Assembly (NCBI GenBank): GCA_903842235.1
Contig: CAIMLG010000059.1
Span: 14,125 to 78,124 of the forward strand
Length of the DNA stretch: 64,000 bases
Origin: an uncultured Verrucomicrobia subdivision 3 bacterium
GTDB taxonomy: Bacteria; Verrucomicrobiota; Verrucomicrobiia; Limisphaerales; UBA11358
Direction of reading: 5' to 3'
Below are positions 11,676 to 46,180 of the stretch, in pieces (position 1 is the stretch's first letter; each line of letters opens with the position of its first letter). The notes beneath the pieces are model-generated. The model had not been told where the DNA came from and ran no database searches. It was given only the letters and a program-made list of their open reading frames with translations. The position numbers were made by a program, and so were the translations under genes.

Positions 11676-13009
11676 AGCCCAATTTCACCCGGCGCGAATT
11701 CCTCGGCACCACCGCCGTGGCCGGCGCCGGCCTGCTGCTGGCCTCCTGCAGTCCGAACCAGCCCAAAGCCCCCGGCGCCAAGAGCACCCTGAGCCAGCTC
11801 AACATCGCCCTCATCGGCTGCGGCGCGGAAGGCCAGGTGCTGCTCGAATCCCTGCTGGTGATCGAGGGCATCCGCCTCGTGGCCATCGTGGACATCTGGG
11901 ATTACAACCGCGACAGCAATGTCCGCCGGCTCAAGAGCCAGGGCATCGAGGTGAAGAGCTACGAGAACTACGAGGATTTGTTGGCGCACGAAAAAGATCT
12001 GCAAGCCGTGATCGTCGCCACGCCGGATTTCTGGCACGCGCCCATCACCAATGCCTGCCTCCAGGCCGGCCTCCATGTGTATTGCGAGAAGATGATGAGC
12101 AATACCATCGAAGGCGCCCGCTCCATGGTGCAAACCATGCGGGCCACCGGCAAGCTGCTGCAAATCGGCCACCAGCGCCGCAGCAACCCGCGCTACATGT
12201 TTGCACTCAACCGGCTGGTGAATGACGCCAAAATCTGCGGCCGGCTCACCGCCGCCAACGGGCAGTGGAACCGCGCCGTGTCCGAAGATTTCGGCTGGCC
12301 GAAGAAATTCGCCCTGTCGGCGGAAATGCTCGCCAAATACGGCTACAAGGACATGCATCAATTCCGCAACTGGCGCTGGTTCAAGGCGCTTGGCGGCGGG
12401 CCCCTGTCCGATCTGGGCGCCCATCAGATTGATATTTTCAACTGGTGGTTCGGCATGGCCCCCACTTCGGTGATGGCCAGCGGCGGCGTGGATTACTACA
12501 AGAACCACGAATGGTATGACCACGCCATGGTCATTTACGAATACCCGCTGCCCACCGGCACCGTGCGGGCCTTCTACGAAGTGCTCACCACCACCAGCGC
12601 CGGCGGCGGCTATTCCGAGATGTTCATGGGCGACGAGGGCACCATCAAGATGTCCGAGAACCCCAGCATCACCAAGCTTTACCGCGAAGACCGCGCCCCG
12701 GCCTGGGATGAACTCGTGGCCAAGAACTATCTCCGCGCCAGCGCCGTGGCCGCCGCCAGCACGGAGGCCGACAAGGTGGATGTCCGGGAAACCGCTCCCC
12801 TGCTCCAGTATGACATTCCGGTGTCCTTCGCCAAAAAGATTCACCAGCCGCACCTGGAGAATTTCTTTAACGCCATTCGCGACCAGAAAGTAAAATTGAA
12901 CTGCCCCGCCGACGAGGCCTTCGCCAGCGAATACGTCATTCACAAGGCCAACGAAGCCATTGCCGCCCGCAAAACCATTGAAATCACCGCCGCCGAAACC
13001 AAAGCCTGA
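11669..13009 (+). CDS. Gfo/Idh/MocA family oxidoreductase with twin-arginine signal
   Basis: TRREFLGTTAVAGAGLLLASC signal, Rossmann IALIGCGAEGQ, VYCEKMMS motif. Confidence 0.9.
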   Translation: MVKPNFTRREFLGTTAVAGAGLLLASCSPNQPKAPGAKSTLSQLNIALIGCGAEGQVLLESLLVIEGIRLVAIVDIWDYNRDSNVRRLKSQGIEVKSYENYEDLLAHEKDLQAVIVATPDFWHAPITNACLQAGLHVYCEKMMSNTIEGARSMVQTMRATGKLLQIGHQRRSNPRYMFALNRLVNDAKICGRLTAANGQWNRAVSEDFGWPKKFALSAEMLAKYGYKDMHQFRNWRWFKALGGGPLSDLGAHQIDIFNWWFGMAPTSVMASGGVDYYKNHEWYDHAMVIYEYPLPTGTVRAFYEVLTTTSAGGGYSEMFMGDEGTIKMSENPSITKLYREDRAPAWDELVAKNYLRASAVAAASTEADKVDVRETAPLLQYDIPVSFAKKIHQPHLENFFNAIRDQKVKLNCPADEAFASEYVIHKANEAIAARKTIEITAAETKA

Positions 13010-13039
13010 CCGTTTCCGTCTTACCCCCCAGACACGCCT

Positions 13040-13699
13040 ATGAATACATTCCTCCCCAAACTCACCGTGGCCCTCCTGCTCACCACCGCTGTGGCGCTGG
13101 CCGAAGACAAGGTGCCGCTGAAGATTGAACTCCCCAAGCCGCTCAAAGTCGGCACCCCGGTGCCCATCAAGATTCCCAACCTGGAGCCGACCCTCAAAGG
13201 CGCCCGCCCCGCCTTCCTCGTGCCTGTGGGCACCACCAACCTGGCCGCCGGCAAAACCGTCACCGCCAGCGATGACACCATCATGGGCACGCTGGACCTC
13301 CTCACCGACGGCGACAAGGCCGGCGACGAAGGTTCCTGGATCGAATTGCCCCCCGGCAAACAGTGGGTGCAAATTGACCTCGCCAAGGAATCGGACCTCT
13401 GCGGCGTGCTCGTCTGGCATTACCACTCGCAAGAGCGGGCCTATTATGACGTCGTAGTGCAAGTTGCCAACGACCCCAAGTTTGAAAAGGACGTCACCAC
13501 CATCTTCAATGCCGATGCCAACAACGAACTCGGCCTCGGCGCGGGCAAAGACCTGCCCTACATTGAAACCTATCAGGGCAAACTGATTGATACCGGCAGC
13601 GTGAAAGCCCGCTACATCCGGCTCTACAGCAAGGGCAACACCACCACCAGGATGAACCACTACATCGAAGTGGAAGTCTTCGGCAAACCCGCCGCCTAA
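13040..13699 (+). CDS. secreted F5/8 type C (discoidin) domain protein
   Basis: Signal peptide MNTFLPKLTVALLLTTAVALA. The C-terminal half (...WVQIDLAKESDLCGVLVWHYH...ARYIRLYSKGNTTTRMNHYIEVEVFGK) fits the discoidin pattern. Confidence 0.7.
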   Translation: MNTFLPKLTVALLLTTAVALAEDKVPLKIELPKPLKVGTPVPIKIPNLEPTLKGARPAFLVPVGTTNLAAGKTVTASDDTIMGTLDLLTDGDKAGDEGSWIELPPGKQWVQIDLAKESDLCGVLVWHYHSQERAYYDVVVQVANDPKFEKDVTTIFNADANNELGLGAGKDLPYIETYQGKLIDTGSVKARYIRLYSKGNTTTRMNHYIEVEVFGKPAA

Positions 13700-13718
13700 G
13701 TCCCCAGTCCGCATTTCA

Positions 13719-13753
13719 CCCCCTGCCCCTCACCGGGAGCAGGGGGTTTTTGT
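13719..13753 (+). terminator. rho-independent terminator
   Basis: 8-bp stem ccccctgc/gcaggggg with a 12-nt loop, followed by tttttgtt; starts 20 nt after the stop at 13699. Confidence 0.85.
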
Positions 13754-13948
13754 TCCTCGGCCTGGGAATGACGGCGAAAACCCAACCACCGGAAAGCTGG
13801 CGCGAGCCTGGCCGGGTGTGTTATTAAAAACAAAAGCGAGACCACCATTACAACGCCCCGGACATCACCATTCCTGCGCTGGACCATCTTCCTGGCCCTG
13901 GCCCTGCTCGCCCTGGCGGTTCGCCTGCCGCACCTGGCGGATCGGCCC

Positions 13949-15367
13949 ATGCACACGGACGAAGCCGTCAATGCCGACATCCTCGGCGAACTGCTGGCGG
14001 GAGGAACATATCACTACGACCCGCAAGACCGCCACGGGCCGGTTTTATATCTGCTCGCCAAACCCATCGCCCAACTCGGCGGGGCCAAAAAACTGGCCGA
14101 CTTGACCGAAACCGAGCTCCGGCTCACGCCGGCGCTCGTCGGCAGCGCCACAATTCTGTTATTTGGCGCGGCGGTGGAACTGTTTGGGTTCCTGCCATGC
14201 CTGATCGCCGCCCTGCTCTTCGTCGTCGGTCCCCTGCCCGTCTATTACAGCCGTTATTTCATCCATGAAACCCTGTTTGTCGCGGCCACCTTCGGGCTGA
14301 TTCTGTCCGGGGCACAGGCGCTCCAAACCCAATCCGGCCGCTGGGCCGCCCTGGCCGGATTCTGCGCGGCCCTGATGCTGGGCTGCAAAGAAACGGCGGT
14401 TCTCCATTTCGGGGCGCTGGCCGCAACCGGGCTCATCGGCGGCCGCTGGCGATGCCGAACCACGGAACCGCCGGCCTCCGCCGGCCCGGAACTCCCGCCG
14501 GTGGAACCCGCGCGCGGCGCGCCGATGGGAAAAATCAGCTTCATCGCGGGCGCGGTCTTTCTGTTGACGACCCTGTTGCTCTTCACCGGGTTCGGCCAAA
14601 ATTGGCAGGGGCTGGCCGACCTGGGGCACGCCCTCCCGCGCTTCCTGGCCCGGGCAGGGGGCGAAGGACACGAAAAGCCGTTCGGCTACTATTTCCCCCT
14701 GCTCGATCCGCTGTTTATTTTTTCCATCGTCGCGCTGGCCGGAATTTACGCGGCCATTACGGACGCGGTGACGGGCGCGCGCAAGGCGGGATTGTTACTG
14801 ACGGTTTATGGGCTGCTGATTTTGCTGATCTATTCGGCCGTTCCCTACAAGACCCCCTGGCTGGCGCTGAATCTCTGGCTGCCGCTGGCCCTGCTCTGCG
14901 GCCTGGGCGCGGGCGCCATCTGGGAACAGATCAAAACCCCGACGGGCCGCTGGATCGCCGGCCTTGCCATCGGGGCCTTGATCGTCGTGGCGGGCCAGCA
15001 GACCAAGACATTGGCGTTTGATGATCCGGCGGCTGAAAAAAACCCGCTGGCCTACGCCCACACCGGCGAAGATCTCGCGCGCCTGCCCCTGCGCCTGACG
15101 CAGTTGGTGAAGGAAAAACAATTAGCCGAACCGACCATTGCCGTCGTGGCGGCTGATCCGTGGCCGCTGCCGTGGTATTTGCGGAAATTTGCCCGGGTGG
15201 GCTACTGGCAGCCGGGCCAGGAACCGGGCGCGGCGGATTTTTTTATCACGTCCACGGACCCGGCCGAAGCGCTGGCCCAACGATTGAAAGATTATCGCCC
15301 GGAATTTTTCGGCGTCCGCCCAAATGTTTTAGTCATCCTCTGGACGCCCCCGCCCGCCCAGCCATGA
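13949..15367 (+). CDS. GT-C / PMT_2-type membrane glycosyltransferase-like protein (TIGR03663-like)
   Basis: RPMHTDEAV...YHYDPQDRHGP motif region and many TM helices. The first ATG is 13949, but in-frame TM-helix codons continue upstream to 13772 without a canonical start (see finding). Confidence 0.75.
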   Translation: MHTDEAVNADILGELLAGGTYHYDPQDRHGPVLYLLAKPIAQLGGAKKLADLTETELRLTPALVGSATILLFGAAVELFGFLPCLIAALLFVVGPLPVYYSRYFIHETLFVAATFGLILSGAQALQTQSGRWAALAGFCAALMLGCKETAVLHFGALAATGLIGGRWRCRTTEPPASAGPELPPVEPARGAPMGKISFIAGAVFLLTTLLLFTGFGQNWQGLADLGHALPRFLARAGGEGHEKPFGYYFPLLDPLFIFSIVALAGIYAAITDAVTGARKAGLLLTVYGLLILLIYSAVPYKTPWLALNLWLPLALLCGLGAGAIWEQIKTPTGRWIAGLAIGALIVVAGQQTKTLAFDDPAAEKNPLAYAHTGEDLARLPLRLTQLVKEKQLAEPTIAVVAADPWPLPWYLRKFARVGYWQPGQEPGAADFFITSTDPAEALAQRLKDYRPEFFGVRPNVLVILWTPPPAQP

Positions 15368-16194
15368 GCGAGATCCACGTTTTCCATCACCGGGCCATGG
15401 CCACGCAGTTTCAGGTGCGCATTGCCGGCCAAGACCAGCCCTACGCCGCGCAGACGGCGCAAGCGGCCTTTGCCCTGACCGACCAACTGGAGTCGCTCCT
15501 GAGCCGCTTCCGCGCCAACAGCGACATCAGCCAGATTGCCAAGCTGGGGCCACAGGAAAAGCTGCGGCTGAGCGAACCCGTGTTTGCCTGCCTCCGCGTC
15601 GCCCGCCGGATGGAAGCCGCCACGCGCGGCGCGTTTTCCGTCACCGCCGCCGCCCTGCAAACGCAGCCCACGCGGCCCTTATGGTCGCTGCTGGAAAAGG
15701 AATTTTCGCTGCGCTGCGACAGCGGCCGGGTGGAACTGGATTTAGGCGCCATCGGCAAGGGCTTTGCCCTGGACCGCATGGCAGAGATTTTGCGCGAGTG
15801 GGATTGCCCGGCCTTTCTGCTCGTGGCGGGCGGGAGCAGCGTGCTCGCGGGCGAAGCGCCGGCGAGGACGGCGGGCTGGTCCTGCGGGCTGGGCGACGAT
15901 CATTCGCCGCACCGCTACTGGCTGAAAAACGGCTCGCTGAGCGGGTCTGGTCTGGCGGTTAAAGGAAAGCACATCATTGACACGCGCACCGGCATCCCCA
16001 CCGCCCGGCGAAATCGCGTCTGGGCTTTGGCGGACACCGCCGCCGAGTCGGACGCGCTCTCGACGGCGGGGATGATATTGACGGAAGCGGAAATCAGCGA
16101 CGTGCTGGCGAACGAGCCCGGCTGGCTGATGTTCCTCCAGGAAAAAGAAAACTGGCGGCACCTGGGCTTGCGCCCCGTGCCGCCAGCGATGTGA
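15364..16194 (+). CDS. apbE: FAD:protein FMN transferase
   Basis: MATQFQVRI..., LGAIGKGFALDRMAEIL, ...IIDTRTGIP. ATG 15364 overlaps the upstream TGA (ATGA). Confidence 0.85.
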   Translation: MSEIHVFHHRAMATQFQVRIAGQDQPYAAQTAQAAFALTDQLESLLSRFRANSDISQIAKLGPQEKLRLSEPVFACLRVARRMEAATRGAFSVTAAALQTQPTRPLWSLLEKEFSLRCDSGRVELDLGAIGKGFALDRMAEILREWDCPAFLLVAGGSSVLAGEAPARTAGWSCGLGDDHSPHRYWLKNGSLSGSGLAVKGKHIIDTRTGIPTARRNRVWALADTAAESDALSTAGMILTEAEISDVLANEPGWLMFLQEKENWRHLGLRPVPPAM

Positions 16195-25287: not shown

Positions 25288-26976
25288 TCAGGGCACCAGC
25301 CAAGCGCGATAAAATTGGCGGCCGGAGCTGATCGGCACCGGATTGGTGTAGAGCCAACTACTCGCGGTCAACGTATTCGTGGCCAGCGGCAGCCAGGTCT
25401 GCAAGTCCGCCGAAGTTTGCAGCACGATCGTTTGCCCGGAAACGCCATTCACGCCAAGGCGGAATTGGGTGCTGCTCAATTTGGCCGCCCCTAAAACCGG
25501 CGGCTGAGAACTGGCAGCGACGGTCAGCAGTTCGGGCGTGTAAAGATAGCGCACGTGTTGGCCATCGCTGATGCGGGCATAAACGGCGTAGGTGCCCGGC
25601 GCCATATTCGTCGTGGGCAAGCCCAGGTTGGCATAATAGTTCACCGCCGCCGTGCCCGAAGCGGGGGGCGACAAGGTCAGCACGGCGACGCTGTTGGAAT
25701 TGCAGGGATTGAAGTCCCGGTCGAAATAGATTTGGGCCGTTAAATTGGAGGCGCCGCCGTATTGATAATACAAAGTGGCGCCGACCGAATTGCCCGGCAC
25801 CACCGGATTGGTCCCATTGAGGTTGAACCGGAGGAGGTTCGGCCAGGTGCCGTTGTTGACGGGCAAGGCCGTGCGATTCGGCGTGGAACTGCCGGCGCCC
25901 AAATCCCAATATTGATTGTAGCCGTCGCGAAGAGCCGGGTAGCCGCCCCCTTCGGGCTGGAGCGTATTGGTGCGATTGCCGTGACCGATCAGGCTGTAAA
26001 GAAAGCCCGTGTTCGTCCCGGCAGCCTCATAGGCCGTCCACCAAGCTGAGCGCTCCGTACCGGTGAGGGAAGGATTCGAGGGATCGCCATCACTCGTGGG
26101 AACGGCAAAATCCAGCGTGCCGTGATACCAGAGGTGCACATTCGAATGTTTGGGCGAAACCGAGCTGGTATTGCCGTAACCCCCCGAAAGCGTGTGCAAC
26201 TGCCGATTGTAGGCGCCATTGACCCACTCGCCATCGGGATCCAAAAACACCCCGAGATTCTGCCAATAATTATCGTGGTAGAGCACATTGGCGTAGGTGT
26301 TCGCGGCGGAGGCATCGGTCGGCATGAACAATTCAGAATTCCCATCATTGTTTAAGGGATGCGGATCCAGCGTGGTCAAATGATCCACCCAAACCCCATT
26401 CGTGCCTAGGAGCCGGCTGATTTCATTGATAAGCGAACCGCCGCGACTGTGGCCGATCAGGTGCAGGGGAAACTCCACCAGCGCGTGGCCGCCCAAGTCG
26501 GCAATCGTGTTGGTCTGCAGAAGGAGCGTGCTGGCTGCCGCCGCCACTTTGTAGGTGCTGATATTATACGCGGCGCCCCCGCCGGCCATCTGGCTCCAGT
26601 CCAGTTTGACAATGATTTCCCCGGAATCCGTATTGGTGGGACTGGTTCCGGCGACGCGCGACCACTGGTAAAAAATACTGGTGCCGTCGGTGGTCAGCGT
26701 CAATTTGTAGGTGGTGGAATTGGTGCCCGGAAACCCCGGATAATTGGTGAGGCGACTGGCCAGGCCCGAAATCCAGCCATCGACATTCCCACCGAAGCCG
26801 TGAGTGATAATGGTCACGCCGGCGGCTTTGGCAGCCGGGGAGATAAAAATGCTGAGAACCAGCAGCGCCACCCAACATAACTTTTTTCGGGCCCGCCCAA
26901 GGGAAGCCGGACGGGCGGGGACGGGACAGCGCGGGCGTCCAACCCGAAGGGCTTTTGTTGGCATGGTCGGCATCAT
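25288..26976 (-). CDS. secreted alpha/beta-hydrolase (lipase-like) with C-terminal W...FYR module
   Basis: TM/signal [21 protein letters not shown]; ITHGFGGN; nucleophile elbow LIGHSRGG; ends ...[11 protein letters not shown]...[10 protein letters not shown]. First ATG 26976 (track TTG 27015). Confidence 0.8.
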
Positions 26977-38994: not shown

Positions 38995-39732
38995 ATGAGC
39001 ACCGCCGCCACCAGTTTGAGTGCCGAAGCCCAAGCCAACCTGCCGCGCCACGTGGCCGTCATCATGGACGGCAACGGCCGCTGGGCCAAGTCACGCCACC
39101 TGCCGCGCATCGAGGGGCATCGGCGTGGGGCGGATTCCGCGCGCGAGATCATCCGCTCGGCGGGCGAACTCGGCATCAAATATCTTACGCTCTACGCCTT
39201 TTCCGCCGAGAACTGGAACCGGCCCAAGGACGAGGTGGACGCGCTGATGAAGTATCTCGTCCATTATCTCAAGTCCGAGACCAAGGACCTGAACAAAAAT
39301 AATGTCCGGCTGGAAGTCATCGGCCAGATTCACCGCCTGCCGGACAACGTGCAGGAGCACCTGCAAAAATCCATCGCCACGCTGGCCAAGAACAACGGCC
39401 TGACACTGGTCATGGCGCTGAGCTACGGCAGCCGCATAGAAATTGTGGATGCCGCCCGGCAAATCGCGGAGAAGGTGAAATCGGGCAAGCTGGACCCTGC
39501 GGATATCACAGAGGAAGTTATTTCCAATCATCTCTGGACGCGGAACGTGCCCGATCCTGATCTGCTCATCCGCACCAGCGGCGAGATGCGCGTCAGCAAT
39601 TTTCTCCTCTGGCAGATATCCTACGCCGAACTCGTCATCACCCCGACGCTCTGGCCGGATTTCAAGAAGCCGCAGTTCATCGCCGCGTTGGAGGAATACG
39701 CCAAGCGCCATCGGCGGTTCGGCGGCGTCTGA
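38995..39732 (+). CDS. uppS: isoprenyl transferase (undecaprenyl-diphosphate synthase)
   Basis: HVAVIMDGNGRWA, LTLYAFSAENWNRP, LIRTSGEMRVSNFLLWQ. Confidence 0.95.
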   Translation: MSTAATSLSAEAQANLPRHVAVIMDGNGRWAKSRHLPRIEGHRRGADSAREIIRSAGELGIKYLTLYAFSAENWNRPKDEVDALMKYLVHYLKSETKDLNKNNVRLEVIGQIHRLPDNVQEHLQKSIATLAKNNGLTLVMALSYGSRIEIVDAARQIAEKVKSGKLDPADITEEVISNHLWTRNVPDPDLLIRTSGEMRVSNFLLWQISYAELVITPTLWPDFKKPQFIAALEEYAKRHRRFGGV

Positions 39733-39786
39733 CGCCGGGGCGCGCTTTGGCTGGACAAAAATTTCAAGCCGTCGCACAGTCGGGTG

Positions 39787-40029
39787 ATGACACCACGTCT
39801 TACCCCTCGGAGGACCGCCGCACTGACGCGGGTGGAGGTGCTGGTGGTGATTGCCACCCTTGCGGTGCTTGCAACGCTTGCCTTGCTCGCACTGTCAGCC
39901 GCCAAAAAGAAGGCGCATTTAGTTCAACTCAGGGAGTTCTTCCTTCGTCAAAGGCGTCATATTGGGAGTCATATTGGATCGCAAAATGCACTTGTTTGGT
40001 GGAAGGCCCATGCGAAAGCATGGGCCTAA
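39787..40029 (+). pseudogene. stranded prepilin-type N-terminal helix ORF (probable 5' fragment of a disrupted gene)
   Basis: LTRVEVLVVIATLAVLATLALLALSAAKKKA resembles the type II secretion/pilin-like N-terminal segment. The remaining ~45 codons are lower-GC, have no homology by eye, and end in the hairpin at 40005-40026. Confidence 0.4.
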
Positions 40030-40045
40030 AGAAAGGCAAAAGCAT

Positions 40046-40879
40046 ATGAAGCGATGGGATGGAATGATGGACGGATATCTCAAACAATGTGAGACGTGCG
40101 GGCTGAGTGAGGCCACCGTGATCGGCCGGCGGCACGAGTTGGAACGGTGGGGCTGCTGGCTGAAGCGCCGTCGACCGAAGCCCAACCTCGAGGCGGTGGA
40201 TGGGCTGATGGTCATCGAATACCTCCGCAGCCGGACAAGGTTTCACGCGAAGACCACCGTGGCCGGCGTGAGCAGCAAACTGAGGCTGATGGGGGAGTAT
40301 CTGTTGCAGGAAGGGGTGTGGATCAAAAATCCGCTGCGCTGGATTCGCGGACCGCGGCTGGATTCCCGCGGGCGAATGCCCCGGCGGATTGGAGCGGAAC
40401 ATCTGAAAAAGCTCTGGGACGCTTCGAGCCAGAACCCTAATGATTACCAGCAACATTTATCCATCGCGGTGCTGGCGTTGCTTTACGGCACCGGCTTGCG
40501 GCGGGGCGAGTTGGAGCGGTTGGATCTGGCGCACTGGAAGCGGGAGGCAGGGATTCTCCAGATTGATGGCCGCAAGACCGGACAGGAACGAAGCGTGCCC
40601 GTGTCCGAAGGCATCTGGCGCTGCTTGGAAGCGTATCTACCCCTGCGGCAAAACCTGTTGGAGCGGCGGGGCGTCTGTCGTGAACCCGCCTTGTTCTTGA
40701 ACCGGGCGGGGGTGCGGATGAGTTCCCAAAGTCTGGGTTTGATGGTGCATCGGCTGGCCCGGCGGGCGGCGGTGCCGCTGGTCAGTCTGCATCAATTTCG
40801 CCACACCTGCGCCTCGGATTTGCTGGAGAGCGGCGTGAGTCTGCCGGAAGTTCAGCAGCTGCTCGGCCACGCCACCGCC
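40046..40879 (+). mobile_element. tyrosine recombinase/integrase gene lacking the catalytic-Tyr C-terminal segment
   Basis: SAM-like N-domain (MDGYLKQCETCGLSEATV...), GTGLRRGEL (Arg), HQFRHTCAS (HxxR), LLGHAT. No Tyr occurs in the following 40+ codons. The frame continues into the next feature without a stop. Confidence 0.7.
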
Positions 40880-43035
40880 GCCCGCGTCTGCCTGGATTCC
40901 CAAAACCGCCTCTGGGCCACCGAAGCGGGCTTGAACATCTGTGCGGCCACGGCCCAGACGCCCCAGCTCATTCACCCCATCGTGGTGGACGAACTCTGGC
41001 CCAGCAGCAACGCCACCAACCGCCTGCCCGTCTCCCTGATTGAGGACAGTCGCGGAAGAATCTGGTTCTGGTCGAGCTGCCGGCTGGGCGATGATTCGCG
41101 CGGTGCAGTGCGCGGCGTTTTGCTTGAGGAAAACGGAGCCGTCACCCATCACCCGACCCTCGACGGCGTAACGGACGGACGGATTTCGGTCATCGCGCCC
41201 CTCGGCAAAACCAATCTCTGGCTCGCCGTGCGGGAGGCGGGAATTTTTGCCGTGAACCTGGAAACCCTGCACGGTTCGCCGGTGACCGAGCCGGAGCCCG
41301 GCGCGCTGGGCGGGGTGCATTCCATATTTCAGGACGGCGAAGATATTTACGTCATTGCCGGCCGGCCGGGGACCTTTGATGAGCAAGGCCGGCAAAACAC
41401 GCTCTGGCGCCAACGGGCGGGCACCTGGAAAAAAATCATCAGCGGCCTCGACAGCGCCGGCACGGCGGAACAATTCGCGGAGCGCCATTGGTGCTTCACG
41501 GCGGACGGCCTGTGGCTCGGCGCCTTCGGCACCGGCGGCTGGTTCGTGCCGCGCCCCGACGGCGAGCCCCGCCAGCTTGCGTGGCAAGCCGGTTCGCCGT
41601 TCGACACCCTCCACCGCTGGTTTCAGCTCAAGAACGGCCAGATGCTGGCCCTGCAATTTGGCCGCGGCGGGCTGCTGGCAGATGCCGCGCTACTGACGGC
41701 CCAACCGACCCAAGCCACGGCAACCATTCTCCAACTGGACCGGCCCCTGATCCAAACGACGGACGGAAAAATCTTTGCCATCCGGCGCGGAAACCAAGCC
41801 GCCTTGAGCGAATGGGATGGCCAACAGTGGCAGCCGCATCCTTTCCCCAACCCCCTTGGCTTGTGGGGCAACAGCCGCATCATCACCGACGCAAAAAACC
41901 GCGTCTGGCTGATTGACGCCAACTACAATCCGGATCCGACTTTGGCGCCGACTTGGATTTTTGACCCGGGGCCGGGGAAATTCCAAATTTTCTCCAATTT
42001 CCGCTCCGCGCTTCAAGCCCAGGTGAGCCAGCTCGCCGGCACGCCGCTGGGCAACCCGGTCGCGCCCAGCGCCGTTTTGGCGGGCGACGGTCGCATCAGC
42101 TACACGGAGCAGAACGCCCGGCTGCATTATTTCAACGGCCACGAATGGCGGGCGTGGAATTACTATCAAATCGCGAACAATGGCATGTGGGGCACCGGCG
42201 ACCGCGTGCCATTCTTCGGCCGGGACGGGAAGCTCGCCATCGAATTCAATGGCGTCGTCTGGCAATTTGACGAACTGGAGGGCTGGAAAAAATCCACCCA
42301 GTCAGCCCCCAAAAACGCCGCCCCCACCACGGCCACCGCCGCCACGCCCAACGTGCCGGAGGCCAGTTCCCTGGTGGCGGACCCGCGCGGGATTTATTGG
42401 GCCGTGGCGCGCCAGCAACTTTACCGGGCCGGCTACGGATTGCGCGCCGCCGTGTTCCCGCCCAGCGAACCGCAGCCGTTTGCCGACGGCCGCAAGCTGA
42501 CCGGCGTGATGGTGGATCATTTCGGCAACGCCTTTCTGCAAACCAGCCTGGCTGGCCGGGAAGAGACCGTTTTCGTTCCCGCCCGGGCGCCGCTGCCAAA
42601 AACCCAAATCCAAAGACCCGCCCCGAGCCGGGACGACACCACCCTGGAACTATCGGCTCCGCTGGTGGCGCAGCCGCGCTTTGTCTGGCGCACGGACGGC
42701 GGCCCCTGGAGTGACGCCACCACAAATGCGGTGCTGCAGCTCGATGATTTGGAGGCCGCCCAGCACCGGGTGGAGGTGTTGACCTTGAACGAACAGCTGC
42801 AAACCGATCCCGCGCCCGCCACGTTCACCCTCGAGGTCCGCCAAAATCCTGCCCAGCGCTTCAGCAGTTCATCGCCCAGCTCGGAGAGGCGGATTACAAC
42901 CGCCGCGAGGCGGCCATCGTCTGGCTGGCCCGCCATCGCGAACTGGCTTTGCCACAGTTGCAAACGCAGCTGGCGCGGGAAACCAATGCCGATCGCCGCT
43001 GGTGGCTGCAGGCAGCCCTTCAGCAGTGCCAGTGA
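40880..43035 (+). pseudogene. beta-propeller (two-component-regulator-propeller-like) plus Y_Y_Y/Ig-like protein body, fused 5' to the integrase remnant and frameshifted near 42857
   Basis: Blade-like repeats SLIEDSRGRIWFWS, TNLWLAVREAGIFAV, DGLWLGAFGTGGWF, DAKNRVWLID, plus FVWRTDGGPWSD...HRVEVLTL. The plausible C-terminus continues in frame +1 to TGA 43033-43035. Confidence 0.6.
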
Positions 43036-43091
43036 CCGGCGAAGTTTTCCGGAGCATTTTTCGCGGGACGCCGTCCAATGAATCGGCTATT

Positions 43092-43097
43092 TATAAT
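43092..43097 (+). promoter_or_regulatory. TATAAT -10-like hexamer upstream of the DUF4139-like gene
   Basis: Exact tataat in an AT-rich stretch 23 nt before ATG 43120; no good -35 seen. Confidence 0.2.
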
Positions 43098-43119
43098 ATC
43101 CAGCCAACCGAATTATATT

Positions 43120-44565
43120 ATGAAAACACTCACCACCCTCCTCACGCTCGGCGCGGCGGCCACCTGCACGGGGCTTGCTGAACCGGCGCTCACGATCTAC
43201 AACCAAAACTTTGCCGTGGTGCGCGACACCGTGGCGCTGGACCTGAAAGCCGGGCCAAACGAAGTTCGCTATGCCGGGGCCACCGCACAGGTGGAGCCGG
43301 ATTCCGTCATCCTGCGCGATCCGGCGGGCAAACGGTCGCTCCAGATTCTGGAACAAAATTACCGCAACGATCCCGTTTCCCAGGAAATGCTGCTCTCGTA
43401 TTTTGAAGGCAAGACGATTGATTTTCAAAATATTCGCACCAAGGACAACACCCAGATCCGGGAATTGATTCCCGGCAAAGTTATCCGCAGCGGCTTTGTG
43501 CCCGGCGGGGAGATCCAGCAGCCGGTCATCGAAGTGGCGGGCAAATTGCAGTTCTCGCTCCCCGGCCAGCCGCTCTTTCCCGACCTCGGCGACGATACGA
43601 TTCTGAAACCGGCGTTCAACTGGGTGCTCCAGCCGGACAAGGCCGGCAAGGTGGACGCCGAAGTCGGCTATGTCACCGCCGGCTTCGATTGGAGCGCCAG
43701 CTACAATCTCATCTCGCCGGAGAAAGGCGATTATGTGGATGTGGTCGGCTGGATCACCATGAATAACACCAGCGGCAAGACGTTTGAGAAGGCCAAAATC
43801 CAGCTCATGGCCGGCGACGTGAATAAAATCCAGCCCGCGCCCGCCCGCCCCATGTTCAAAGCCCGGGCCGTGGGCATGGCGATGGCCATGGCGGAAGACG
43901 GCCAGGCCGTCTCCGAAAAAGCGTTTGACGAATTCCACCTCTACTCGATTGCCCGCCCGACCACACTGCACGATCACGAGACCAAGCAGGTGGAATTTGT
44001 CCACGCCGAGAAAATGTATGCGCCGACGATCTATGTTTATGACGGCGCGGAAGGCTATCGGTTTTACGGTTTGAACGCCGACCGCGGCTACGGCCAGACC
44101 GGCAACAAGAAAGTCACCGTGATGCGCGAGTTTGTGAACGCAGAGACGAATCACCTGGGCGTAGCGCTGCCCAAGGGCAAGCTGCGCTTCTATCGCCGCG
44201 ATGCCGACAGCCAGCTGCAGTTTGTGGGCGAGAATCAGATTGACCACACGCCACGCAATGAGACGGTGCGCGTGACGACGGGCAATGCGTTTGACCTGGT
44301 GGGCGAGCGCAAGCAGACCAATTTCAAGACGGACAATGCGGAAAAATGGATCAATGAAACCTTTGAGATCAAGCTCCGCAACCGCAAGAAAGACACGGCG
44401 GTGGAATTCCGCGTGGTGGAACATCTCTACCGCTGGAGCAACTGGAGCCTCACCGCGCAATCGGATCCCTTCACCAAGAAAGACGCGCAGACCATCGAAT
44501 TCCGCGTCCCAGTCCAGCCCGACGAGGAAAAGGTCGTGACCTACACGGTGCATTATTCCTGGTAA
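43120..44565 (+). CDS. secreted DUF4139/MuiA-like protein
   Basis: Signal peptide MKTLTTLLTLGAAATCTG; ...LTIYNQNFAVVRDTVALDLKAGPNEV... The family assignment is from memory of the DUF4139 N-terminal pattern. Confidence 0.7.
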   Translation: MKTLTTLLTLGAAATCTGLAEPALTIYNQNFAVVRDTVALDLKAGPNEVRYAGATAQVEPDSVILRDPAGKRSLQILEQNYRNDPVSQEMLLSYFEGKTIDFQNIRTKDNTQIRELIPGKVIRSGFVPGGEIQQPVIEVAGKLQFSLPGQPLFPDLGDDTILKPAFNWVLQPDKAGKVDAEVGYVTAGFDWSASYNLISPEKGDYVDVVGWITMNNTSGKTFEKAKIQLMAGDVNKIQPAPARPMFKARAVGMAMAMAEDGQAVSEKAFDEFHLYSIARPTTLHDHETKQVEFVHAEKMYAPTIYVYDGAEGYRFYGLNADRGYGQTGNKKVTVMREFVNAETNHLGVALPKGKLRFYRRDADSQLQFVGENQIDHTPRNETVRVTTGNAFDLVGERKQTNFKTDNAEKWINETFEIKLRNRKKDTAVEFRVVEHLYRWSNWSLTAQSDPFTKKDAQTIEFRVPVQPDEEKVVTYTVHYSW

Positions 44566-44590: not shown

Positions 44591-46180
44591 ATGCAATTAT
44601 TCATGGGCAGATACTGGGTTGTAATCCTACTGATGTTGTCGGTATTCCGTCCGTCGGCACGGGCGGACGGAAAAGTATTTGCGCAACCAATCGCCACGTC
44701 TGTGACCACGCCCGACCAGCGGGCCATGCTGTATTACTCCAATGGCGTGGAGCGGTTGGTGATTGAAACCTCTTTTGTGGGCGCGGGAACAAATTTCGCT
44801 TGGGTCGTTCCCCTGCCCGCTCCGCCCAGGATCGAAGCCGTCGCCACCAACTTCTTCAGTTGTCTGAATCTGGCATATCAACCGCATCTGATCCGCGAGG
44901 CCGACCCGTGGTGGTTATTGTTTCTGCTCGTGGGATACGCTGTGGGCACGGGCATTTGGGCGTATCGGCGAAAACATTTAGAGCGGTGGTTTTGGTATAA
45001 CTTGTTGATATTTGTTTTATTGCTCCTTCTGCTGCCCATGTTTGCCACAGCGGGTCTTAGCGCCAGATCGGCAGCGAGCACTTCATCTATCAACGGCATC
45101 AACGTGCTTGAACGGCAGAGCGTCGGCATATACAACACGGTCACGCTTTCGGGGACAAACGGCACGGCCCTGCTGGATTGGCTGAATGCTAATGGTTTTG
45201 CCACCCCTAAATCGGCGTTGCCCGCCATCACCAGCTATGCGGCGCAGGGCTGGGTCTTTGTCGCCGCCACGGTCAACCGCGAGGTGTCGGCGGGCACCAG
45301 CAGCCGGCCACACCCGCTTTGTTTCACATTCAAAACTGATAAAGCAGTATATCCGCTAAAGCTTACGGGCGTGGAAAATCCACAATGCACGATTGAACTG
45401 TTCGTCTTCGGGCCGGAACGGGCCGAGGCTCCCGGGTTTCGGGTGGAATACTGCGGAATTCCAGCCGCCAGCCAGCCAGCCGCCAAAGACGAATGGTTTC
45501 AACAGCGGGAACTATTTGGCGCCGCCCGCCCGGGCGATTTCAAGTTTGGCAACCCGGAAGTTCTTCGGCTCGCCTTCCCCGCGACGGTCACCACCCGGCT
45601 GGTGGGCACATTAACCGCCGAACAAATGCAGTCGGATGCCTGGATCAGCTGGTCACCATTTCAGCCGGTTGTGCCGACTTATCACACCCGGTCAGCCGCT
45701 CTCGGCGCGACCTGCAACTGGCTAACAGGGATTTGGGTGCCGGGCCTGCTATTGCTAAAGATTTTTTCACCGCACCTCCAGCGAAAACCCATTATTCGCG
45801 CATGTTTGATTATCCTCCTGCTAGGAGCGGCTTGTGGATTCATCCGCTACCATAGCATTAAAACTATCGAGGTTACCTATATCCGCGGTGGGTGGTTTCG
45901 TGCTGTGAACAATGTTAAAGAACTCAACCTTGCCATTGAACTATTTACCAAGGAACGAACCAACTCAGCCCCGCTTACGGAAGATTCATTTCTGTCCGAA
46001 TTCCAAAAAGGCGATGATTACGTTAGGGTGAAAAACGCCTTTACGAGCCAACCCCTGCGCTGCGAACCAACCCCAGGCAACATCACACTCCAAGCCTCCA
46101 AAATCACCAACGGCTTGGATGTGTTCTGGTATGACATTCATGGCGCACCGCACAAATTGGCATCTTTCCCGGCGAAATAA
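44591..46180 (+). CDS. DUF2330-like secreted/membrane protein with C-terminal extension
   Basis: Signal peptide; ...RAMLYYSNGVERLVIETSF...WVVPLPAPP...; YNTVTLSGTNGTALLDWLNANGFATP...AAQGWVFVAATV; internal TM helices. Confidence 0.65.
   Translation: MQLFMGRYWVVILLMLSVFRPSARADGKVFAQPIATSVTTPDQRAMLYYSNGVERLVIETSFVGAGTNFAWVVPLPAPPRIEAVATNFFSCLNLAYQPHLIREADPWWLLFLLVGYAVGTGIWAYRRKHLERWFWYNLLIFVLLLLLLPMFATAGLSARSAASTSSINGINVLERQSVGIYNTVTLSGTNGTALLDWLNANGFATPKSALPAITSYAAQGWVFVAATVNREVSAGTSSRPHPLCFTFKTDKAVYPLKLTGVENPQCTIELFVFGPERAEAPGFRVEYCGIPAASQPAAKDEWFQQRELFGAARPGDFKFGNPEVLRLAFPATVTTRLVGTLTAEQMQSDAWISWSPFQPVVPTYHTRSAALGATCNWLTGIWVPGLLLLKIFSPHLQRKPIIRACLIILLLGAACGFIRYHSIKTIEVTYIRGGWFRAVNNVKELNLAIELFTKERTNSAPLTEDSFLSEFQKGDDYVRVKNAFTSQPLRCEPTPGNITLQASKITNGLDVFWYDIHGAPHKLASFPAK

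Follow-up and report, generated by a model that had tools for sequence, protein, structure and literature searches.

The window analysed here, a 64,000-nucleotide stretch of DNA from an uncultured Verrucomicrobia subdivision 3 bacterium, holds a long open reading frame in which the front of a tyrosine recombinase gene runs into the remainder of a beta-propeller gene, and which the earlier note rightly described as a chimera. It is preceded by the 5' fragment of a small prepilin-like gene just downstream of uppS and by the left end of a mobile element of the recombinase-in-trio (RIT) kind (Table 1). The GC skew is strongly positive across 39918..40877 and negative on either side, switching at both boundaries. 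A promoter and terminator scan of 39600-41000 returned no sites. The chimera is on record on one MAG contig only (85.4 kb).

Table 1. Features of the locus in window coordinates.
Feature	Coordinates	Strand	Basis or remark
5' fragment (start codon + 44 codons, MMTPRLTPRRTAALTRVEVLVVIATLAVLATLALLALSAAKKKA) of a small prepilin/pseudopilin-like gene	39784..39917	+	Probably cut by RIT insertion after codon 44
Left 960 bp of a RIT element: terminal inverted repeat, leader, truncated ritA	39918..40877	+	blastn to complete elements
Left terminal imperfect inverted repeat, starting TTTAGTTCAAC	39918..39975	+	Identical terminus in 9 copies, unrelated sequence leftward in each
Chimeric ORF, 1039 codons	39962..43081	+	ORF list; publicly annotated start ATG 40010 (1023 aa)
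Hairpin GGCCCATGC-GAAA-GCATGGGCC in ritA leader	40005..40026	+	20 nt upstream of the family start codon
Tyrosine recombinase gene in ritA position, 277/316 codons	40046..40876	+	Arg, HxxR, LLGH kept; last 39 codons with catalytic Tyr missing
Proposed deletion junction, RIT DNA / propeller gene	40877..40878	.	RIT similarity ends at 40877
5'-truncated double-propeller/Ig-like/helical-tail gene, family codons ~130-858	40878..43035	+	Orthologues 50-55% identical; true stop 43033-43035

A recombinase without its nucleophile

The front of the chimera matches the Pfam family Phage_integrase (PF00589) over amino acids 143-306 with an E-value of 1.7e-24 (87 bits against a cut-off of 27.1). The match breaks off at profile position 159 of 172, and those to the XerC and XerD models end at 267 of 295 and 264 of 290, respectively. 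The full-length relatives (316 aa, 89% identity) place the truncation after LLGHAT, at nucleotide 40876. There the relatives continue with VVTTTRYLQIADPERA... and the family reads VVTTTRYLQIAD; the 39 residues that include the Tyr are missing here. The family Tyr (VVTTTRY) stands seven codons past the junction, and the complete catalytic set with its nucleophile is absent; the translated ORF has no Tyr for 60 or more residues downstream of the recombinase part. The earlier view of an integrase lacking its catalytic-Tyr tail is thus borne out both by the profile ends and by the full-length relatives. What remains of RitA deviates at only 1 of the 114 columns with at least 95% family conservation and therefore shows no decay.

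The left end of a RIT element

The recombinase sequence is part of a longer conserved block. In blastn, 39918-40877 is 86.25% identical, without gaps, to positions 2225-3184 of L014 and ~80% identical to L001 and L002, and similarity to complete RIT elements is limited to this interval. Each of these three relatives carries three Phage_integrase genes (316, 302 and 323 aa) with 4-bp overlaps. The four complete copies are 3186-3191 bp long (~3.19 kb), with imperfectly inverted ends reading TTTAGTTCAAC...GTCGAACTAAA, and hold three recombinase genes, each with its catalytic Tyr, without cargo. Position 39918 is a true element terminus, because nine copies have nine different left flanks; a terminus common to unrelated flanks (n = 9) likewise marks the element as mobile as a unit. 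The nine left flanks gave no consensus that would indicate a target-site preference, and no target duplication was seen.

The perfect 9-bp hairpin pointed out previously is present, and seven RIT copies keep an 8-bp stem at its position; one pair in it is compensatory, and several changes are G-U. The sequence at 39918-40045, taken before for degenerate lower-GC sequence, is instead where the mobile element has its conserved left end and leader. The family occurs abundantly in Verrucomicrobiota metagenomes, mostly on short contigs, and, judging by sequence similarity, the window fragment belongs to a RIT lineage common in this phylum.

The window copy does not comprise three adjacent, co-oriented, overlapping recombinase genes; it has only 277 codons of the first gene and neither ritB nor ritC, and is therefore classed as a remnant and not as an element. 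Its left inverted repeat is in place at 39918, the window has no right repeat (...GTCGAACTAAA), and a search of all 64 kb found ritB, ritC, the right end, the RitA tail and the propeller N-terminus nowhere else. The earlier idea of a lone ~1 kb of mobile DNA therefore holds insofar as this is mobile DNA with an integrase, but the piece amounts to 960 bp at the left end of a RIT element that is 3.19 kb long when complete.

Two other arrangements were considered and rejected. One has the integrase gene divided by an attachment site of its own and places the Tyr tail at the far end of a ~1-kb element; it fails because the family tail (VVTTTRYLQIADPERA...) is unmatched in the window and 39918-40045 is a conserved end and leader. 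The other, a shufflon-like or invertible pilin system in which a recombinase sits beside a constant pilin N-terminus, fails because there are no inverted segments or further recombinase sites and because the element behaves as a transposon, its copies standing in many unrelated flanks. When 39915-40045 was read in three frames for a Tyr tail, vague resemblances were seen.

The propeller gene and the junction

Thirty-seven orthologues of the propeller part were found, the best 55% identical; they are ~855-865 aa long and begin with a classical signal peptide and ~130 N-terminal residues that are absent from the window. An AlphaFold model of one orthologue (pLDDT 86) has two beta-propellers, an Ig-like domain and a C-terminal four-helix (HEAT-like) tail, and Foldseek places the periplasmic domains of BT4673, BT4663 and BT3049 closest to it (E 4e-20 to 1e-18). 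The description as a propeller with a Y_Y_Y/Ig-like module is thus supported at the level of fold (Foldseek ~1e-20), with Pfam Reg_prop reaching 17.9 bits, under its cut-off of 20.4. The model supports a predicted fold shared with Y_Y_Y-type sensors, without their signalling domains, and a sensor role is only putative.

The copy in the window is without the signal peptide and without the strands of model residues 22-133. Further, a 1-nt deletion near 42859 shifts its last ~58 codons, and through this frameshift the conserved helical C-terminus of the family is replaced; by its sequence, the gene appears to be decaying. Genes of the family are usually preceded by DUF4139, and the SMC-like gene downstream in the window matches the L003 neighbourhood. 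An intact locus was not found in any close relative; relatives close in UppS carry other genes after uppS.

The right junction does not coincide with a terminus of the element: ritA is joined to about codon 130 of a ~860-aa gene. The residues after the integrase (ARVCLDSQNRLW), once likened to the motif that follows a pilin helix, are an internal segment of the propeller family at about residue 130, and the orthologue segment LGPAALARFGMDS aligns without gaps with LGHATAARVCLDS of the window. Since a signal peptide and ~130 residues open the orthologues, and the sequence right after the junction aligns to their interior, two unrelated genes appear to have been joined by deletion. The junction may lie within a short L-G-x-A microhomology at about 40862-40882.

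The upstream prepilin-like fragment

RIT similarity begins directly after the prepilin-like fragment, at 39918. Its 44-codon helix gave no match to Pfam N_methyl (PF07963) at E <= 0.1, a weak, sub-threshold match to the GspH model (E 0.004, 17 bits against a cut-off of 80) and a further weak match to a prepilin-peptidase-dependent pilin. With phmmer, four matches to N_methyl-type N-termini were obtained (E 2e-5 to 5e-4), and the best relative, P0187, precedes an N_methyl pseudopilin gene. At the cleavage region, A/LTRVE, Glu+5 is kept and Gly-1 and Phe+1 are replaced. The prepilin-type N-terminus reported as stranded upstream therefore stands as weakly prepilin-like: the phmmer matches speak for it, but Pfam N_methyl is silent and GspH stays below its cut-off.

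Searches for an intact prepilin gene or an empty site returned nothing, whether by word-based protein search or by degenerate and exact DNA scans of metagenomes. Exact look-ups of the window UppS and of the chimera yielded zero contigs on record. Among UppS relatives, synteny stops at the uppS stop codon, with DUF2809-RluA there and no empty site.

Proposed origin and alternative explanations

Overall, ORF 39962-43081 is very probably a chimeric pseudogene that contains a recent, dead RIT remnant, which makes it commonplace genomic debris, not a novel fusion protein. We infer the order of events, the mechanism of the deletion and the size and content of the lost DNA as follows. A RIT element would have inserted into the small prepilin-like gene just downstream of uppS, with its left terminus preserved at 39918. 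A later deletion, which was presumably not site-specific and was possibly guided by a microhomology of a few bases, would have begun inside ritA seven codons before the catalytic Tyr. It would have run rightwards, taking the ritA tail along with ritB and ritC, then the right end, what remained of the prepilin-like gene and host DNA that probably included a DUF4139 gene, and it would have ended near codon 130 of a conserved gene for a secreted double propeller. The in-frame join, and with it the 1039-codon ORF, would be due to chance, and the frameshift in the propeller part would have been acquired after the deletion. Two parts of the earlier proposal agree with this account: that integrase-bearing mobile DNA landed in a gene with a prepilin-type N-terminus, and that the 3' end of the integrase gene was lost later, together with the remainder of the element, by deletion.

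From its sequence, the ORF is predicted to yield neither a working recombinase nor a working propeller protein. Recombinase function is not expected because the nucleophile and the two partner enzymes are missing, and propeller function because the signal peptide and the first beta-strands are missing and a frameshift has been acquired since.

It is unlikely, although the most serious of the alternatives, that the fusion exists in no cell and that the metagenome assembly jumped at 40877 from a multi-copy RIT element to an unrelated region. Such an error would fit the single 85.4-kb MAG contig, the short contigs on which this abundant family mostly occurs, as is typical of assembly-breaking repeats, the absence of the junction sequence from the metagenome collection, and the end of synteny with UppS-close relatives just after uppS. 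However, the break falls inside ritA and does not coincide with a repeat boundary, and what its two sides have in common is a few bases at most, far below an assembler k-mer. The left boundary is a clean and genuine insertion terminus, and the frameshift at the 3' end of the propeller gene is consistent with a gene that was already dead.

A functional fusion, in which the Tyr-less DNA-binding/core domain of RitA has been domesticated to form the N-terminal module of a propeller protein or regulates RIT transposition in a dominant-negative way, is highly improbable. The join is in frame, the RitA part retains its leader, start codon and conserved residues (1 of 114 deviant), and the ORF is long and open. 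Yet an in-frame join is expected by chance one time in three, and the architecture is a single occurrence: a search for a fusion family with the same integrase-like N-terminus found it in none of the 37 propeller orthologues and not among the integrase matches listed. Moreover, the propeller part has lost the signal peptide, the strands of model residues 22-133 and, through the frameshift, the conserved helical C-terminus. The alternative raised in the earlier note, a dead recombinase domesticated together with a sensor propeller, is left unsupported by this unique architecture, the missing signal peptide and the frameshift.

Large prepilin-anchored proteins are common in Verrucomicrobiota. 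Least probable of all is that a single prepilin-anchored propeller gene was hit by the element and that precise removal of 39918-40877 would restore it: such proteins are indeed frequent in the phylum and the flanks are mutually in frame across a GCCGCC repeat (39895-39900 and 40877-40882), but the orthologues have a signal peptide and ~130 residues before the window sequence begins, and 40877 is no element terminus, as the element should run 2.2 kb further. Excision between the GCCGCC repeats at 39895 and 40877 is ruled out by the same orthologue alignment, which, showing a signal peptide and no prepilin helix in 37 orthologues, also refutes the supposition that the interrupted gene was the propeller gene.

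Significance

The main value of the case lies in annotation. The public 1023-aa protein is best treated as a chimeric pseudogene, and it gives no evidence for an integrase-propeller architecture or for a prepilin-anchored propeller. The locus also documents a compact, apparently abundant Verrucomicrobiota RIT lineage with defined termini and length, and shows a RIT copy at a point of genome rearrangement or deletion. The RIT kind itself is already known. Since RIT movement has never been reproduced experimentally, well-delimited, recently active copies would be of some use as study material. It is a long shot that the RIT leader drives expression of a Tyr-less RitA core which, by still binding RIT ends or RitB/RitC, inhibits RIT transposition here in a trans-dominant manner, or, more broadly, that the compact 3.19-kb lineage with its conserved leader hairpin is a recently active RIT family, one in which RIT transposition could at last be demonstrated.

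Comparison with known systems

RIT elements, with the order ritA-ritB-ritC, were described in Cupriavidus metallidurans CH34 and on C. necator pHG1, which is named as a RIT-rich plasmid (Van Houdt et al., 2012; PMC3414803; see also Ricker et al., 2013, cited in PMC8138268 and PMC10214605). No laboratory has yet reproduced their transposition (PMC10214605). The relatives of the window copy resemble proteobacterial RIT in their three co-oriented recombinase genes, 4-bp overlaps, imperfect terminal inverted repeats, lack of cargo and many different flanks, and the window gene has its best match in C. necator pHG1 in the first gene of an annotated overlapping trio. In contrast, amino-acid identity is only ~28-33%. 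The correspondence of RitB is ambiguous by BLASTP, where genes 1 and 3 find genes 1 and 3 of the pHG1 trio but gene 2 matches genes 1 and 3 above gene 2. RitA has been described with two CB domains (PMC8138268), whereas the 316-aa recombinase would have room for a single core-binding region only. Of all this, the window copy retains a 960-bp stump and, on it, one truncated gene.

With the chromosome-dimer resolvases XerC and XerD the recombinase shares the 'simple' tyrosine-recombinase fold, and both NCBIfam models align over both domains. However, the scores of 132 and 122 bits are far under the equivalog cut-offs of 335 and 330, and the gene belongs to a mobile trio with variable flanks and not to a housekeeping locus. 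Public annotations label the family XerD. Tn554, GInts and the strand-biased circularizing elements (PMC10214605, PMC5385486) are likewise mobile elements with several tyrosine recombinases side by side, but in addition to cargo they have a fourth gene, TnpC, GinD or Srap, that encodes no recombinase, whereas the 3.19-kb elements have three recombinases only.

Finally, the two propellers and Ig-like domain of the orthologue model resemble the periplasmic sensor domains of the Bacteroides hybrid two-component systems BT4663, BT4673 and BT3049 (PDB 4a2l/4a2m, 3ott/3va6, 3v9f). Unlike these sensors, to which identity is ~10%, the propeller family is without a transmembrane, kinase or receiver part, has a four-helix (HEAT-like) tail, and has its genes beside DUF4139.

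The chimeric reading frame and its recombinase domain

The 1039-codon ORF is a chimeric pseudogene, and the mobile element within it is of an already known kind. The locus is very probably a young, inactive remnant of a recombinase-in-trio (RIT) element, fused through a deletion to a beta-propeller gene that is truncated at its 5' end and frameshifted. The earlier note had described the sequence itself correctly: the six-frame ORF list holds this ORF directly downstream of one of 81 codons, the integrase domain lacks its Tyr, and the claimed perfect 9-bp hairpin is present. Phage_integrase (Pfam) covers residues 143-306 (E 1.7e-24) and ends at profile position 159 of 172, while the NCBIfam XerC and XerD models span both recombinase domains and end at 267/295 and 264/290, with both scores well under the equivalog cut-offs. 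In the frame of the chimera, no Tyr occurs over more than 60 residues 3' of ...VQQLLGHAT (nt 40876). GC skew is strongly positive over the integrase segment and negative to either side, making the segment compositionally unlike its flanks.

Positions of the features discussed
Feature	Window	Comparison loci
ApbE/PMT_2/F5_F8/GFO block	11685-16167	L010 16265-20709
ARAGORN tRNA call	25796-25893	
uppS stop codon, end of synteny	39725-39732	
81-codon ORF	39784..40029	
Similarity to complete RIT elements	39918-40877	
Inverted repeat and ritA leader	39918-40045	
Positive GC skew	~39950-40850	
1039-codon ORF	39962..43081	
Leader hairpin	40005-40026	L001 5960-5981; L014 2312-2333
RitA search query	40046-40876	
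1-nt deletion, near 42859	42855-42862	
Stop of conserved propeller frame	43035	
DUF4139/DUF2330 neighbours of the propeller gene	43078-44565; 44591-46180	
Additional Phage_integrase gene		L001 2957-4108 (- strand)
RIT left-end motif, single occurrence		L016 7490-7508

Complete RIT elements and the left boundary

Searched against proteins, residues 29-305 of the ORF gave 1706 matches, the best 120 of which are 64-89% identical, almost all 316 aa long, and located mostly on short Verrucomicrobiota metagenome contigs. The relatives read on past LLGHAT as VVTTTRYLQIADPERARA..., so that ritA in the window is without 39 residues, its end falling 7 codons short of the catalytic Tyr. Wherever the contig is longer (L001, L002 and L014), the ritA homologue invariably opens a series of three tyrosine-recombinase genes in the same orientation, which overlap by 4 bp, encode 316, 302 and 323 aa, and all keep the Tyr at the expected place. 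The unit measures 3186-3191 bp, carries no cargo and is flanked by imperfect inverted repeats (left end TTTAGTTCAAC..., right end ...GTCGAACTAAA). RIT elements are defined by overlapping ritA, ritB and ritC genes, terminal inverted repeats and presumed intracellular mobility, and their transposition has yet to be reproduced in the laboratory (PMC3414803; PMC8138268; PMC10214605; PMC5737581). Judged by its sequence, the trio unit related to the window fragment fits this definition.

Nucleotide comparison sets exact limits to the similarity with complete elements (Table), with 86.25% identity to L014 over 960 gap-free nt. Nine copies (the window, L001, L002 and L013-L018) have TTTAGTTCAACTCAGGGAG in common and nine mutually unrelated sequences to its left; position 39918 is thus evidently a genuine RIT terminus. 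What had been taken for degenerate low-GC sequence is the conserved inverted repeat and ritA leader, starting at this common terminus. Seven RIT copies retain an 8-bp stem of this hairpin, ~20 nt 5' of the ritA start, the differences among them comprising several G-U changes and one compensatory pair; the hairpin may have a regulatory or recombinase-binding role in the element leader, although so small a sample is no proof.

Left of the terminus, a start codon and 44 codons encode a leader and hydrophobic helix that family models scarcely detect. An exhaustive phmmer scan gave four matches (E 2e-5 to 5e-4), all prepilin (N_methyl)-type N-termini, the best of which, at 60% identity, is a 91-aa gene preceding a 219-aa N_methyl pseudopilin gene. 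The fragment is taken to be the likely start of a small prepilin-like gene that the RIT element interrupted.

Two side observations concern other copies. On the 123-kb L001 contig, ~1.8 kb separate the complete RIT from an additional integrase gene (383 aa) upstream of it; this RIT copy therefore sits among other integrase genes. L016, from a MAG that carries the label Bacteroidetes bacterium OLB12, has one exact occurrence of the 19-nt left-end motif as well, with divergence setting in sooner after it than in the other copies; coincidence, a distant copy of the element or misbinning of the contig could each explain this.

The junction and the propeller gene

Position 40877 falls within ritA, ~2.2 kb before the expected element end, and to its right lies an orthologue of a 37-protein family (50-55% identity, members of ~855-865 aa). 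These orthologues open with a classical signal peptide and ~130 further residues that are missing here, window ARVCLDSQNRLWATEAGLNI aligning with orthologue-internal ...RVFMDAQTNIWVTEAGLNI. The AlphaFold model of one orthologue, P0001 (pLDDT 86, pTM 0.81), is all-beta to residue 790, followed by a four-helix tail, and the absent N-terminus covers the strands of its residues 22-133; its best PDB matches (E ~1e-20) are the double-propeller and Ig-like periplasmic domains of BT4673, BT4663 and BT3049. A 1-nt deletion (between cgc and ttcagcag) stands where orthologues have one more base opening an Ile/Val codon, and the conserved helical C-terminus (QQFIAQLGEADYNRREAA...WWLQAALQQCQ, then stop) runs on in another frame, the listed ORF extending past that stop.

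The RIT element entered the prepilin-like gene adjoining uppS. A subsequent deletion would have begun within ritA and reached the propeller gene near its codon 130, as suggested by the topology and by the missing pieces: the RitA tail, ritB, ritC, right repeat and propeller N-terminus occur nowhere else in the 64-kb window. At the junction, L-G-P-A of the orthologue and L-G-H-A of RitA fall in the same register, and it may be speculated that a few bases of microhomology guided an illegitimate join, which would account for the kept frame. The event looks recent: of the 114 highly conserved columns of its family, the RitA fragment deviates at just one, a count equal to the family median.

That the chimera is an artefact of metagenome assembly is improbable. 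It is known from one MAG contig, and its junction is absent from the other metagenome assemblies searched; however, the break lies away from any repeat boundary, and its two sides share no k-mer-length overlap. A functional fusion of the integrase and propeller parts is unlikely, given that the architecture occurs in no homologue of either half (37 propeller orthologues; the integrase relatives listed) and that the propeller part carries a frameshift and is without its export signal and first strands. The single prepilin-anchored propeller gene proposed in the earlier note is refuted by the orthologues, with their own signal peptide and ~130 residues.

Gene neighbourhood

In relatives, a DUF4139 gene precedes the propeller gene; in the window, as in some relatives, a DUF4139 and an SMC-like gene lie downstream, so the right side retains its ancestral gene context, and what lay upstream has been lost. 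The family is regularly flanked by at least one DUF4139 paralogue (also L005 and L007), which suggests a conserved envelope-associated cluster in Verrucomicrobiota; a DUF2330 gene also flanks the window locus. Compared with genomes carrying an 86%-identical uppS, the ApbE/PMT_2/F5_F8/GFO block is inverted, ~23 kb upstream of uppS, and synteny stops exactly at the uppS stop codon, indicating several rearrangements around the locus that are not attributable to the RIT copy. A search for a close relative or empty site of the locus found none. Elsewhere, an odd ARAGORN call of 98 nt ('tRNA-???'), whose anticodon has 2 bases, is probably false, Rfam at gathering score giving no tRNA or other family there.

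Relation to known RIT elements

The results are useful in two ways: they correct an annotation, and they define the limits of a compact RIT lineage in Verrucomicrobiota. The C. necator megaplasmid pHG1 has been named RIT-rich (PMC3414803), and the best match of the family there is gene 1 of an annotated overlapping trio. By BLASTP, the correspondence of gene 2 between the Verrucomicrobiota and pHG1 trios is ambiguous, whereas gene 1 finds gene 1 and gene 3 finds gene 3 as best matches.
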